DNA of 64,000 bases from Octopus vulgaris (taxonomy: Eukaryota), in the NCBI GenBank assembly GCA_951406725.2, contig OX597815.1, positions 189,720,001 to 189,784,000 on the forward strand, given 5' to 3'. Shown one piece after another: positions 6,121-63,991 of the stretch. The first letter of the stretch is position 1, and each line of letters begins with the position of its first letter. The notes beneath the pieces are model-generated. The model saw only the letters and a program-made list of their open reading frames with translations. It searched no databases and had not been told where the DNA came from. The position numbers and the translations under genes were made by a program.

Positions 6121-6302
6121 TTAAAAATTGCAGTAGAGTCCAGTTGAACAGACAGCCATGAATATTACTTGTCAGTACAACTACTGTATTGATCTCTTAG
6201 AGAGATTTTAGAACTAATATATGTATAGATACATATTTAGTAATATTTGTAGCTGCTTCAACATGGCTGTCCATTCAAACGGACTCTACTGTGATCTGTT
6301 AA
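6121..6302. mobile_element. MITE-like element with ~40-bp imperfect TIRs and TTAA ends
   Basis: TTAAAAATTGCAGTAGAGTCCAGTTGAACAGACAGCCATG vs CATGGCTGTCCATTCAAACGGACTCTACTGTGATCTGTTAA. Confidence 0.6.
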
Positions 6303-6556
6303 TCCTAAGAGGGCATCTCCTCTAGCTGGTTAACGCTATAGAGCTGCATCCAATAAATTGTGAGCAGGGGAGGGCACCCCTACTATGTTCTAGCAATGGG
6401 ACTAGTAGACCAGTCCTGGTTTTGGATTATTTTTGCTGGTCTTCAGTACACTGAGCCCATCACTAGAAGATGGTAGGGGTGTGCTCCCTTGCTCACAGTT
6501 TACCGGATGCTGCTCTGCATCATTAACCAGCTAGGGGCGATGTCGACTTGAGGTTA
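6300..6556. mobile_element. Palindromic element: ~100-bp inverted arms around a hammerhead-like spacer (6405-6449, -)
   Basis: Arms 6300-6400 and 6456-6556 are imperfect reverse complements; second copy at 7153-7302. Confidence 0.75.
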
Positions 6557-7152: not shown

Positions 7153-7302
7153 ATTGTGAGGGGAAGTGAGCTACTACCATCTCTAGCAGATGAGCTGTCC
7201 AGTACTGAAGAGCGGCAGAAATAGCCCAAAGCCAGAACTGGTCTACTGGTCCTGTCACTAGAAGGTGGTAGGGGTTCGCTTCCCTGCTCGCAATTTATCG
7301 GA
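7153..7302 (+). mobile_element. Second, shorter copy of the palindromic HHR element (HHR at 7199-7249)
   Basis: CCAGTA CTGAAGA GCGGC AGAAATA GCCC AAAG CCAG AA CTGG TC TACTGG inside inverted arms. Confidence 0.7.
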
Positions 7303-18686: not shown

Positions 18687-18849
18687 TGAGGATTATCTAG
18701 ATTATTTACATTATTTACATTTGAAAAATATTTGTCTTCATCTTGTTTGTTGTTAACACAACTTTTCAGCTGATATACCCACCCAGCCTTCATCAGGTGT
18801 CTTGGGGGAAATTTCGAACCTGGGTTCTCATTCCTAAGGTATTTTTCGA

Positions 18850-18850
<1 letters not shown>
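18687..18850 (-). mobile_element. Family G body, inverted copy, HHR at 18755-18801
   Basis: Minus strand GACAC CTGATGA A GGCTG..CAGCT GAAA A GTT GTGTT. Confidence 0.8.
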
Positions 18851-18892
<42 letters not shown>

Positions 18893-18952
18893 ATTATTAT
18901 TGTTATTATTATTATTATCATCATCATTATTATTATTATTATTATTAATATT

Positions 18953-19024
18953 ATGCCCGTAGGCATATGGCATTAGAGTGTAGGCTACTAACCCCAAGAT
19001 CCCGAGTTCGATTCCAGGCAGTGA

Positions 19025-19077
<53 letters not shown>

Positions 19078-19240
19078 TTGAAAAATACCTTAGGAATGAG
19101 AGCCCAGGTTTGGAATTTCCCCAAGACACCTGATGAAGGCTGGAGGGTATATCAGTCGAAACGTCATGTTAACAACAAACAAGATGAGGACAAATATCCG
19201 TCAAATGTAATTAATGTAAATAATGTACATAATTCCTCAT
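18953..19240 (+). mobile_element. Family G full element: tRNA-like head + (AAT)n + hammerhead-bearing tail
   Basis: B box GTTCGATTCC at 19006-19015; HHR at 19125-19170. Confidence 0.75.
19125..19170 (+). ncRNA. Hammerhead ribozyme motif, type I minimal
   Basis: GACAC CTGATGA A GGCTG GAGGGTATAT CAGTC GAAAC GTC ATGTT; full core, GUC site, one stem I mismatch. Confidence 0.7.
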
Positions 19241-23045: not shown

Positions 23046-23442
23046 TATTCATTATTTAACCAACTCATTAATTAAAGAAATGATCAATTAGTTAGTTGGT
23101 TAGATATTTAGCCGAATGACTAACAATAAAGAAGTGATATTGAACCAGTGCATGTGTTTATCATTACTGGTGTAATGACCCTCCCAAGATGCTACAAGAT
23201 TTATTTCAACCCACAGATTCATATGAAGAATCTTGCAAATCAAATAATGTGAACTATATTATTCCTTGTTCAGTTATTAGTAGTGAAAAAAATATTAGTC
23301 ATAAAATTATTCAATTTCATTTTCCACATTCATATAATATGACTTTGCTCAAGAGTACATTCATCAATACGTTTTTTCCCATTAGTTTCCAGTCGCATGT
23401 TTATTAAATCAAAGTTACAATTAATCCAAGATGACAATTAAA

Positions 23443-24895: not shown

Positions 24896-24924
<29 letters not shown>

Positions 24925-24926
<2 letters not shown>

Positions 24927-25510
24927 TGTTATATTTCAGAATGGTCATTTTGCCAGTTTAGTCATTAAAAATACACGCACTATATATTTGGTGTTACTTT
25001 GCTTCAGTGTTATTTATTTTTTACATTAATCTTAGTCTTATTTCCGCCAGAGTTCTTTCGTCACACTCCTGTGACCGCATCAGTGGTCCTTTGTTTTCTT
25101 CTTTCTTATTTGTGTCTCTCCTTACTAACCGTCAACCATTTTGTATACAAAATACAAAATGGCTTACGGTTAGTAAGGAGAGACACAAATAAGAAAGAAG
25201 AAAACAAAGGACCACTGATGCGGTGCCATTTGTATTTTGTATACAAAATGGTTGACGGTTAGCAAGGAGAGACACAAATAAGAAAGAAGAAAACAAAGGA
25301 CCACTGATGCGGTCACAGGAGTGTGACGAAAGAACTCTGGCCGAAATAAGATTAAGATTAATGTAAAAAATAAATAACACTGAAGCAAAGTAACACCAAA
25401 TATATAGTGCATGTGTTTTTAATGACTAAACTGGCAAAATGACCATTCCGAAATATAACAATATCTGTTTCAACACACGACTTCACATAAAAAATCTTGC
25501 ACAACAAATA
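24925..25510. mobile_element. Near-perfect inverted repeat (~235-bp arms) with HHR-like motifs at 25047-25086 (-) and 25301-25340 (+); Penelope-like terminal repeat
   Basis: CCA CTGATGC G GTCAC AGGAGT GTGAC GAAA G AA CTC TGG; extra partial copy in the spacer; flanked by (TA)n. Confidence 0.75.
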
Positions 25511-25521
25511 TATAAACGTAC

Positions 25522-35429: not shown

Positions 35430-35750
35430 GTTTTGGATTTGGATTTGGTTTACCAGATTCTTTAAATGAGTTCGTGTGTTGAAGCATATTCTGTTGTGTC
35501 TGGGGAGAGTCATTTTCTTTTTGTGCCTTATAATGTAACACACTCACTGGTAAAATTTCCACTTATTTCTTGTTTTCCTTTTCCCTAAAATTTGCGTTGG
35601 GTCTTGCAAGACTATTGAAGATCATTGAAAAGGTTGCAAGATGCAACGAGAATTTTAGGAAAATAAAAATAAGAAATTTTATTGGTGAACGTGTTACATT
35701 ATAAGGCACAAAAAGAAAATGACTCTCCCCAGACACAACAGAATAATAAT
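35430..35750. repeat. Inverted repeat (~120-bp arms) related to the 24925-25510 element
   Basis: TATTCTGTTGTGTCTGGGGAGAGTCATTTTCTTTTTGTGCCTTATAATGTAACAC and its reverse complement at ~35691-35745. Confidence 0.8.
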
Positions 35751-36792: not shown

Positions 36793-37223
36793 AAGTAAAA
36801 TTATATTTAAAAAAGCATGTTCCTTGTTTACTAGAGAAATTTTTCTTCTGGCAACACTGCTTCTGTTCAATGTAATGAATGTGCAAATAGATTAATATAA
36901 ATAGATTCAATAAAATGGATACAATAAACCTTTTGAATTCAAAGAATCTATGATTTTCTTCCTTTCAAATCAAGAGGGTAATGTTGGTGCAAATAAATAT
37001 ATTTTGGGGTAATTGGTTAAAAAAGTTCTCCAAACCCTGCTTTAACAGCTTTAATTTTTCTGTAGAAGTTATTAAAAAATGATATTAAAAATTATTTTCA
37101 TATTTTTATCCCTACAACTATTTGTAAAGGAATCACTTTTTCAAGATCAGTGACGAATAGTTACTGGAAAAAGGATATTAATATTTGCATTGGGAACTCC
37201 TTTCCTCGAAGACTGGTGATTGT

Positions 37224-37268
37224 CGTATGCTGATGATGGGTCAAGACCCAGAAACTGCAGTCTGTGCG
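37224..37268 (+). ncRNA. Hammerhead ribozyme motif, type I minimal, single copy
   Basis: CGTATG CTGATGA TGGGT CAAG ACCCA GAAAC TGCA GTC TGTGCG; full core, GUC site; stem I has three G.U pairs. Confidence 0.72.
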
Positions 37269-37742
37269 TATCACTTAGGTTGATGAGGGAAGGATGACCT
37301 CCCTTAGCAAAGTGTGCCTAAAGCCAGCTGGAGGAGATGTTCTCCTGGGGCTACACGCTACAATAACACCCACCCTTAGTGGTTAGCCATATTGAGATGG
37401 CAAATATACCTCACATATTTGTAAAGGATTTTGCTTAAAAGCTTCAGATTTCTTTTAAAATTACAGATAGACTAGAAAGCAAAACCTGAGCAGAGACTAA
37501 TAAAAAAAAAGGGGTCGAAAATGAAATGAAACTAAATAAAATAATTATTTCTATGGTTTTGTTGTGGTTAGATAAAGGCATTGAATGTCTGCAACAGCAG
37601 TTACAATATGTGTCCACTGAGAAAACTATAGAGGAATCAAACAAGGTAGCACTTAAATGAAACATTCTATGAAGCAAGCATTTACAGAAGGCGCTTCTAC
37701 ATTATAACTCATTCTGCTAGATGTAACACCGAATCTCTTTCA

Positions 37743-48045: not shown

Positions 48046-48113
48046 TTGGAAATAGAAATAATACATTTCTAAATCTCTGATTTAGAGAGATTTATGTATT
48101 TGCAGCACAATAA

Positions 48114-48697
48114 AGTGATAGCATGCTGTTAACTTAATGTGACAGTCCCATGAAAGGGAAGAATGCTACTGTTATTTAGTCCTAGGAAACACTGTTCCCT
48201 GTTGGACTAGACATATTTCCTGTGTCCTTATGTTTTCAAAGTGGAGACAAGCTCCTCCGCTCAGCAAAACCAGCAACCAGAGACTAGTTTCATATGCATT
48301 GCTCATCATCAGTCTGGAGTAGCATGGCTTGCTAGCTGTCGATGCTTATCTGCCTTTGAAAACATAAGGACAGAGGAAATGTTATTTCTTAACTTCCCAC
48401 AAGGGGCTACACACAGAGGGGACAAACAAGGATAGACAAACAGATTAAGTCAATTACATAGACCCCAGTGCGTAACTGGTACTTAATTTATCGACCCCAA
48501 ATTTGAACTCAGAACGTAGCAGCAGACGAAATACCGCTAAGCATTTCGCCCGGCGCTAGCGTTTCTGCCAGCTCGCCGCCCTAAAACACAGGAAATGTGT
48601 CAAGTCCAACAGGAAATGGTGTTTCCTAGGGCTAAATAACAGTAGTATTCTTCCCTTTCATGGGACTGTCACATTAAGTTGACAACATACTATCACT
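48114..48697. mobile_element. Kolobok-like MITE, ~125-bp TIRs, right arm interrupted by SINE B2 (48383-48582)
   Basis: ATAA|AGTGATAG...CTATCACT|TTAA (AG..CT termini, TTAA-type target); SINE TSD ~CAGAGGAAATGT/CACAGGAAATGT. Confidence 0.75.
48277..48317 (-). ncRNA. Hammerhead ribozyme motif inside the MITE spacer
   Basis: CCAGA CTGATGA TGAGC AAT GCATA T GAAAC TA GTC TCTGG; perfect 5-bp stem I, GUC site, imperfect stem II. Confidence 0.68.
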
Positions 48698-50034
48698 TTA
48701 AAGATGATGATGTAGATGATGATGCTGATGCTAACGAGAAGTAGAATATGAAAAATCATGTTGATGATAATACCCATTTATAATTGGGAGGGAAAAAATG
48801 GGTAAATGAACAGTGTCGAAACATCACCAAAACCAAAGTGCTAAGCCTTTACAAGTGGAACTAGAACTTATATAATACCAACAAAATATCTTGATTAAGG
48901 AATTCCAAAAATGAAAGGTAGATATAACCTTAAGCATACATTTATTTCTGAATCAAGAGAAATATTTCTCGCAAGAAACATTACTCAACTTACAATAATC
49001 AATATCAAATATTTTGGTATATTTACATTGATAAAATATGAAGAGGCAATCATTGTATAGTTTCATAAGCTGTTTGCAAACCAACTAAAGAGAATTATTA
49101 CCAGAGACAAGGAAGAGATTAAACAAAGCACTGAAGGAAAACAATCGCAATAACTATCAGAAAATTAAGTAAAAACCAGAGAAATATTAACCAAATATGG
49201 ATAATAATTTCTGCAAATTGATTTTATTGAGCATAATAAGGATTTAGGCAGGAAGGTAGGAGAAAGTAATAAAAGTGAAATATAAGAGTAAAAAAATATA
49301 TAAAACTAAATAGAAAACAAATTAGAGTCCATAAAGAATAAGATAATAAAATAAAATAATCAATATTGAAAATAAATTAGGGGATGTTAATTAATTAAAT
49401 TTGTAATGGAGAGCATAATATAAAACCTTTCTGATCAAATTCAGATTTTTATCAAATTTGTTTGTCAGTTAATCACTTAGGAACATATTTTGCTTTTTTT
49501 TATTATTAAAATCAGTCATCAATAACTCCTGTCATTATTTGTATAGAAATAATTTTTGTTTATTCTTCTCTTCACCATATTTGCAAATCTATGTGTCAAT
49601 AAAAGATATTTCTGAAACACACTACTGTCTTTTCCTTTCTCTGTTGTTATATTTGTTTCATATTTCCAGTTTTTCTCTATATGAAGGCACAGAAGAGAAA
49701 GGTTTAAAAATAATATATCTTACCATAAGTGACAGTTATAAAATAATAACTTAGTTTCTTTCAAAAGCCAGGTTCTACTTCTTAGATTGCGGTTTCAGAA
49801 CAATATTGCAATCTATAAATAGTCATCTGTACAAAAACAATATTTTCTCCATGCAGATGTCACCCTCAGTAGGTTTTCTAATTGCACACCATACAAGCTA
49901 TATCAGTAAAGATATAGCTGTGAGGTTAAGGAGTCTGCATAGCAACCATGAGGTTTTAGGCTTGATTCCACTGCTTACCACCTTTCACGGTTCAGTTTGG
50001 TACACAGAAACTGTACAAAGCCTGGTACACAGAC

Positions 50035-63560: not shown

Positions 63561-63688
63561 TGTCCAGCACATCTATATTATCCGTTAATTTAAATTTTAG
63601 CATGTTAAAATGCTAAATCATCAAACTAAAACATTTTTGAAAATTACTAATTTTTAATCTCACAACATGAGATATTCAGCAACAGTAC

Positions 63689-63991
63689 TTTGTAGCAAAG
63701 ATTGTTTGCCAACATAACATGGCAGTCCTGGTTTAGGAATAATGTTGCTGTAATTTAGCCCCAGGAGACATCGTCTTCAGCCAGCTATGAAGAGAAATAA
63801 CCCAGAAATTACAATACACAGATATTGTTTTGAGCTGAGTGAGGATACTAGATTCCCTTGTTCAAAAAATGTAAGGACACAGTTCGTGTCATATAGCCAG
63901 CTGGACACGATGTCTCCTGAGCTAAATTACAGCAACATTAGTCCTAAACCAGGACTACCATGTTATGCTGGCAAACAATCTTTACTATAAA
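63689..63991. mobile_element. MITE with ~100-bp TIRs, related to the 48114-48697 element
   Basis: AAAGATTGTTTGCCAACATAACATGG vs CCATGTTATGCTGGCAAACAATCTTT; shares a TGYTRCTGTWATTTAGYCCYAGGARACA motif. Confidence 0.75.

Follow-up and report, generated by a model that had tools for sequence, protein, structure and literature searches.

A hammerhead-bearing inverted-repeat element in octopus DNA is probably a PLE-type fold-back insertion and not a Kolobok-like MITE

The window, i.e., the whole 64,000-nt stretch of octopus DNA analysed here, is repeat-rich animal DNA with a GC content of 0.358 and without a recognisable gene. Its reading frames of at least 45 aa, taken across the whole window and filtered for low complexity, were compared with Pfam; none of the 427 matched a mobile-element family, and the seven matches obtained, unrelated to mobile elements, were weak and in every case fell short of the curated cut-off. 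No reverse transcriptase or endonuclease linked to the family described below was found among these frames. The locus of interest, at 48114-48697, comprises the following features together with its tail and two distant relatives.

48050-48113, minus strand: tail outside the arm, on one side only, containing a short hairpin; outer limit approximate; element sequence and no host flank
48114-48241, minus strand: arm (the "left TIR"), 3' of the hammerhead (HHR) in the HHR sense; homologous to 63692-63789, 63877-63988 and 37308-37415
48242-48353, minus strand: imperfect hairpin with the HHR at its tip, judged by folding z-scores
48277-48317, minus strand: type I HHR motif, stem I 48317-48313 / 48281-48277
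48312-48306, minus strand: HHR core, with stem II at 48305-48292, a palindromic stem/loop III and predicted cleavage after 48282
48354-48366, minus strand: 13-nt strand pairing with 48229-48241, kept in one-armed copies; likely fold-back point
48367-48697, plus strand: inverted truncated duplicate of the arm (48367-48382 plus 48599-48697), tail-less and interrupted by an insert
48383-48585, minus strand: later SINE-like insertion of repeat family D12, with a 13-bp target duplication (48370-48382 / 48586-48598)
37119-37428, plus strand: distant relative, a 297-bp unit with one arm and an intact HHR (core at 37230), flanked by 13-bp direct repeats
63640-63991, plus strand: distant relative, an inverted pair whose turn-around lies inside the HHR, with tail-like sequence on the left only

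The sequence-only reading had described terminal inverted repeats of about 125 bp with AG...CT termini and TTAA/ATAA flanks. Inverted arms are indeed present, the outer pair at 48111-48225 / 48586-48700 (115 nt, 91% complementary) and the inner pair at 48215-48241 / 48354-48380 (27 nt), and they merge into a single 128-nt arm pair once the SINE-like insert is set aside; what that description lacked is this insert, which splits the right arm. The insert has 11 further window matches at E<1e-30 and visible A/B-box-like motifs, and 48383-48585 may be a tRNA-derived SINE. The terminal letters are likewise there, with ATAA preceding the AG at 48114-48115 and TTAA following the CT at 48696-48697; RR/YY termini hold at 48114/48697 only if the element is cut there, the computed arms reaching 48111/48700. 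The arms at 48111-48225 and 48586-48700 differ at ten positions. At eight of these the right-arm letter is the family's commonest or near-majority other letter, and at the remaining two the loose-end lines hint at the right-arm letter likewise; the two-sided p for such uneven decay is 0.11 for 8:2 and 0.002 for 10:0. Gene conversion or a second template could possibly underlie uneven decay of arms that are presumably of the same age. A-to-I editing was rejected as the source of changes in this copy, these being mixed and mostly C to T.

The hammerhead that had been placed on the minus strand of the spacer was found at 48317-48277 exactly as written. A type I descriptor, composed after the motif had been seen and requiring the core, the stem III pair and at least five pairs in stem I, with stem II optional, matched two sites in the window, 48312(-) and 37230(+), and gave no match in 100 shuffled windows or in 20,000 shuffles of the spacer. 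The surrounding hairpin (48242-48353) folds with z -2.0 on the minus strand and +0.3 on the plus strand. Stem II is broken in the 48277-48317 copy, with GAG opposite UAU, and the local fold of lowest energy does not form a hammerhead (z -0.45); this copy is probably inactive. Measured from the arm end, the predicted cut lies at 171 nt in the 48114-48697 copy and at 153 nt in the 37119 copy. Rfam reported no hammerhead at 48100-48720, at 37100-37450 or among the 150 of 158 window matches listed; this negative is uninformative, because Rfam also missed intact control motifs at 3-4 metagenome loci, including L001, L002 and L005.

A search with the HHR motif yielded five loci in metagenome contigs, none of which shared the arm, and the arm motif had no match in viral contigs and prokaryote genomes. 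One of the five, L003, was set aside as a chance match. In L004, the hammerhead segment (319-426) has an inverted partial copy at 1484-1597, 1.1 kb apart; the broken frames between the two resemble the N-terminus of a mariner-type transposase and may derive from one. Intact type I hammerheads occur in the contigs L001:1-1445, L002:1-1284 and L005:766-799; the first two are tandem arrays whose repeats measure 1021 bp (L001) and 727 bp (L002), more than the 150-450 bp given for animal retrozymes in the available text of PMC7229834.

To extend the analysis to the family, public reads and contigs were placed on 48085-48400 and considered together with the relatives inside the window. Three DNA runs from three organisms contributed 2388, 1879 and 2420 placed contig pieces, and one RNA run, of which about 6% was drawn, contributed 453 placed reads; in each run fewer than half of the query's words matched, and the source animals may be sister species. 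Run X20, an insect metagenome with a small share, forms no part of this evidence. Listings cover 40 of the 132 variant rows, 15 of the 33 joints and 24 of the 630 loose ends.

The HHR is not confined to the 48114-48697 copy: it recurs across the reads and contigs of all three organisms, and stem II can form in the consensus, the family's majority letters restoring its pairing. The majority letters at 48293, 48295 and 48296 account for 95-99% of the DNA depth in all three DNA runs (G at 48293, 98-99%; G at 48295, 96-98%; T at 48296, 96-98%), and 80, 77 and 80 of 83 RNA reads, respectively, carry them. With these letters GAG pairs with CUC in stem II, closing a 6-nt loop; a fourth pair, A-U, is seen in the two loose-end lines behind 48292, and a change at 48276 (54-99% of the DNA depth) adds a sixth pair to stem I. 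At the level of sequence, the family's majority HHR is thereby shown to have all three stems. Core variants are absent from the 40 of 132 variant rows listed, and one loose-end line (X3) has core position 3 changed. The HHR is joined to at least 31 nt of arm in 9 of the 24 listed pieces, each with 19-38 other letters. Since the majority letters restore stem II in a high-copy family, the HHR is a family trait. Over the core the summed depth is 99,000-211,000, against 24-73 for single listed contigs, which is no copy number as such and points to hundreds or thousands of copies. The motifs at 37230, L001, L002 and L005 likewise have a paired stem II, each with a differing sequence, the L loci having been selected by the hammerhead motif itself; pairing kept across diverged HHR subfamilies implies selection on RNA. 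The RNA run covers both strands, and its reads neither start nor end preferentially at the predicted cut, for which 453 reads of ordinary RNA-seq are a weak test. At 48285, in loop III, T to A occurs in 29 of 100 RNA reads and in less than 1% of the DNA depth; the reads concerned carry at least 12 other differences and probably reflect one diverged expressed copy rather than editing.

The sequence beyond the left arm was found to be shared among copies. Reads and contigs of other copies cover 48050-48113, with near-fixed other letters at 48097, 48099 and 48101 (16-27 contigs per DNA run), and the loose-end motif before 48102 is matched as well by only 1 of 1318 window controls as by 48050-48113, and by 0 of 1318 as by 6150-6240. 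The left ATAA is therefore element sequence and no target duplication, because the left flank is a tail common to other copies. No tail-like match was found beyond the right arm, nor any target duplication of at least 7 nt at the arm ends. Among the listed loose-end lines, five cover the family end and read ATAAAG (4), ATAAG (1) and TTAAAG (0). Many arms end near 48111 without the tail hairpin, as does the inverted arm, and 25 contigs of X7 share a boundary near 48111 with diverse flanks.

The segment 37200-37300 has the same hairpin layout as 48242-48353 with other sequence, and neither 37119-37428 nor 63689-63991 has AG/CT ends or TTAA. The latter had been singled out as a related MITE without a hammerhead; the relationship holds, whereas the absence does not, as a decayed 3' half of the HHR is kept, with a local match to the 37230 HHR at p=0.0035 (2000 shuffles). 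Its tail match at 63640-63689 is weak, 18 of 1318 and 13 of 2098 controls scoring as high, and direct comparison of 48060-48113 with 63640-63692 gave p=0.13. Further distant relatives occur at 6131-6556 and 7160-7302, the arm profile matching 6252-6333 (E 0.0002); the tail-bearing end at 6175-6225 faces a long hairpin with a degenerate hammerhead-like motif at its tip, repeated at 7205. In hammerhead-like cores at 136(+), 19130(+), 6641(-) and 63499(-), A9 is followed by an unpaired base, a trait of minimal PLE hammerheads, and the core at 19130(+) lies inside an inverted pair at 18692-19233. An unrelated hairpin family (24923-25514, 35437-35745 and 23147-23250), with differing arm lengths, shares a tail of about 45 nt that is confined to one side (0 of 2098 controls); one-sided-tail hairpin anatomy is thus common in the window, since this unrelated family shows it too. 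A variant hammerhead-like motif, with a base other than A at core position 9, lies in the arms of 24923-25464, which are 97% identical.

Copies of the family vary in the point of inversion and in the presence of a second arm. Among the 15 joints listed of 33 in total, seven switch strand, all at different coordinates and in one contig each; two jump backwards without a change of strand, as expected of tandems, and six are same-strand skips. Loose ends begin exactly behind 48366 in all four runs (20 reads; 38, 20 and 41 contigs), and the copies continue there with some 20 nt unrelated to the arm. RNA depth drops from 19 at 48360-48370 to 0 at 48371-48381, and DNA depth in the second of these intervals reaches 40-58% of that in the first; the 48366 junction may recur in many copies, or contigs may have been mislaid between the two arms. 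If recurrent, it may mark a fold-back hot spot or an amplified subfamily. The arm-to-HHR RNA depth of about 2:1 is compatible with MITE and PLE models alike, and deletions within a palindrome can mimic variable junctions.

Taken on the minus strand, the unit, about 320 nt overall, consists of a short 5' segment, an HHR-tipped hairpin, the 128-nt arm and the tail, and the 48114-48697 locus holds a sense copy running from 48366 to about 48050, with a tail-less inverted arm on its 5' side and a 13-nt overlap. We consider it probable that this is a non-coding PLE-mobilised unit, either pseudo-LTR or retrozyme, and that its cDNA turned back on itself at the unit's own stem. The link to Penelope or retrozymes, one of two options in the sequence-only reading, is borne out by the HHR, the inverted truncated copy and the one-sided tail, all of which match published PLE insertions. 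Three marks carry the comparison: an inverted truncated duplicate with a variable junction, tested as a PLE-type mark, is present; an extension is found on one end only, strong at 48050-48113 and 6175-6225 and weak at 63640-63689; and a type I HHR lies near the 3' end. The "TIRs" are thus likely an inverted truncated duplicate that arose on insertion, and the element a decayed insertion, a known kind of debris. The HHR would then likely sit in a retroelement, where it is expected, because the arms read more simply as a PLE inverted truncated duplicate.

According to the proposed mechanism, a PLE reverse transcriptase with a GIY-YIG endonuclease, acting in trans, would copy the unit RNA from its 3' end; the cDNA would fold back at the 13-nt hairpin-closing stem (48354-48366), and fold-back priming would produce a second, inverted copy of the arm, so that just one side has a tail. 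Intact family members are predicted to self-cleave after 48282, probably as dimers, since stem III is a two-pair palindrome; this would release unit-length RNA from longer transcripts. The SINE-like element would have inserted later, with decay following. The unit could be a pseudo-LTR belonging to a coding PLE, or it could be a retrozyme-like parasite that is free of one.

The sequence-only reading itself favoured a Kolobok-like cut-and-paste MITE. In the available text of PMC9587614 and PMC6004289, Kolobok elements are defined by TTAA duplications and RR..YY ends; tests for a TTAA duplication, for symmetrical ends at a fixed position and for a constant arm-spacer-arm unit all came out negative. 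A true MITE, in which a fold-back HHR unit was adopted by a cut-and-paste transposase and amplified as DNA with the HHR as passenger, nevertheless deserves consideration, the candidates being Kolobok or, if the ends are cut one base further out, a TA-targeting Tc1/mariner transposase. Such an element would account for the AG..CT ends and right-side TTAA of the 48114-48697 copy, for the boundary near 48111 with diverse flanks in the X7 contigs, and for the non-zero DNA depth at 48371-48381 together with the 2:1 ratio of arm to HHR. It is nonetheless unlikely: the family's end letters are ATAA and not TTAA, the left flank is the common element tail, the relatives at 63689 and 37119 are without AG/CT ends and TTAA, and no transposase was found in the window. 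RNA depth across the junction is zero and the strand-switch joints vary; a MITE predicts one dominant junction, and a uniform one is unsupported, because seven differing switches and one-armed copies are seen instead. That a retrozyme-like RNA element folded back into a perfect hairpin, which a DNA transposase then adopted and amplified as a MITE subfamily carrying a working hammerhead, i.e., a switch from class I to class II, is likewise improbable.

A different account would have the copies be scattered pieces of a tandem retrozyme array that spread as circular RNA, the inversions being added later by DNA-level fold-back repair. The canonical type I HHR, whose stems I and III are the same as in the L001/L002 tandem repeats (motif-selected loci), agrees with this, as does a unit of about 300-320 nt, within the retrozyme range in the available text of PMC7229834; the 297-bp unit with its 13-bp terminal repeat, the two go-back joints and the uneven departure of the two arms from the family majority can be read in the same way. 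We nevertheless regard the array as very improbable, as head-to-tail closure of the unit was non-significant (120 of 1318 controls score as high), tandem copies of the unit are absent from the window, and the two outer ends share one arm boundary, an outcome not expected from random repair. A Helitron 3' end is marked by a hairpin plus CTRR, and a non-autonomous Helitron/Helentron-type element, with the tail hairpin as rolling-circle terminator and the HHR hairpin as captured cargo, would fit the short hairpin near the unit's 3' end in three window copies, the CTRR-like tetramer about 9 nt past the hairpin in the 6175-6225 copy and the lack of a target duplication, yet we give it the least credence, because the 48050-48113 copy is without CTRR at the expected place, many arms stop near 48111 without the hairpin, the inverted arm has the same boundary without it, and HHR pairing kept across diverged subfamilies implies RNA-level selection.

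Hammerheads in PLEs and in animal retrozymes are already known (PMC4209133, PMC7229834 and PMC7761336, in their available text), and a dependence of retrozymes on PLEs has been proposed in bioRxiv 10.64898/2026.07.22.740005, where the accessible part of the argument rests on co-distribution and pseudo-LTR homology. The literature listings examined showed no report of an HHR inside a MITE; in the literature text available, "Kolobok" and "hammerhead" occur together only as unrelated passages of one paper. The accessible portions of PMC13282606, PMC6962438, PMC8969392 and PMC13565253 contain no description of the family, and three short element motifs had no match within the abridged sequence cells of the PMC8557442 supplement. 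If the PLE reading is true, repeat libraries of such genomes may list PLE fold-back insertions under MITEs, and a high-copy family would pair a canonical retrozyme-type HHR with PLE integration marks; this would lend structural support to the dependence of retrozymes on PLEs and offer an easy test set, a gain of modest value. Had a subfamily truly become a MITE, it would represent a rare switch between transposon classes.

Compared with Kolobok and the Xenopus T2-MITEs, as far as described in the available text of PMC9587614 and PMC6004289, the 48114-48697 copy is alike in that it can be cut to AG..CT with TTAA on one side; the family differs in having no TTAA duplication, asymmetrical ends with a tail, a unit that is not fixed and relatives without RR..YY ends. 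With animal non-LTR retrozymes the octopus unit shares, according to the accessible text of PMC7229834, a non-coding unit of about 300 nt, low GC and a canonical type I HHR; such an HHR in a 150-450-nt non-coding unit is present here, as seen in the majority letters, the 297-bp relative and the absence of a coding match. The strongly self-paired RNA and the proposed PLE dependence are further likenesses in the available part of bioRxiv 10.64898/2026.07.22.740005. In contrast to the retrozymes so described, the octopus unit is seen as dispersed monomers and inverted partial copies.

The available text of PMC4209133 gives the canonical metazoan type I HHR a 6-bp helix I, a 4-bp helix II and a short palindromic helix III, and notes pairs of opposite-strand HHR motifs 100-700 bp apart for metazoan PLEs. 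The minimal metazoan PLE hammerheads covered there resemble the octopus motif in their dispersed, variable families, palindromic loop 3 and variable position after A9, whereas the octopus helix II has 4 bp instead of 7-8 and its helix I extends, past an internal loop, to form a long stem. Endonuclease-positive PLE insertions come closest. As far as PMC8557442 describes them in its available text, an inverted 5'-truncated copy by their 5' end produces the flanking inverted repeats, one end bears a tail of 30-40 bp, and an HHR lies close to the 3' end; the octopus unit is alike in its inverted truncated duplicate, one-sided tail and HHR near the 3' end, its tail being seemingly longer at about 60 nt. 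A target duplication that is absent or variable is a further likeness to PLE insertions in the sources available. In the accessible account of Pen2a_Av (PMC3846280), the inverted pseudo-LTR overlaps the direct one by 15 bp and palindromic junctions are read as self-priming; the corresponding overlap and palindrome at the 48114-48697 locus measures 13 nt. Differences from PLE insertions, as described in these sources, are a seemingly fixed 5' end about 20 nt beyond 48366, an HHR that is canonical and not of the minimal kind, and the absence of a linked RT/GIY-YIG frame among the reading frames of the window. On this comparative analysis, the family likely works like a PLE-mobilised HHR unit.
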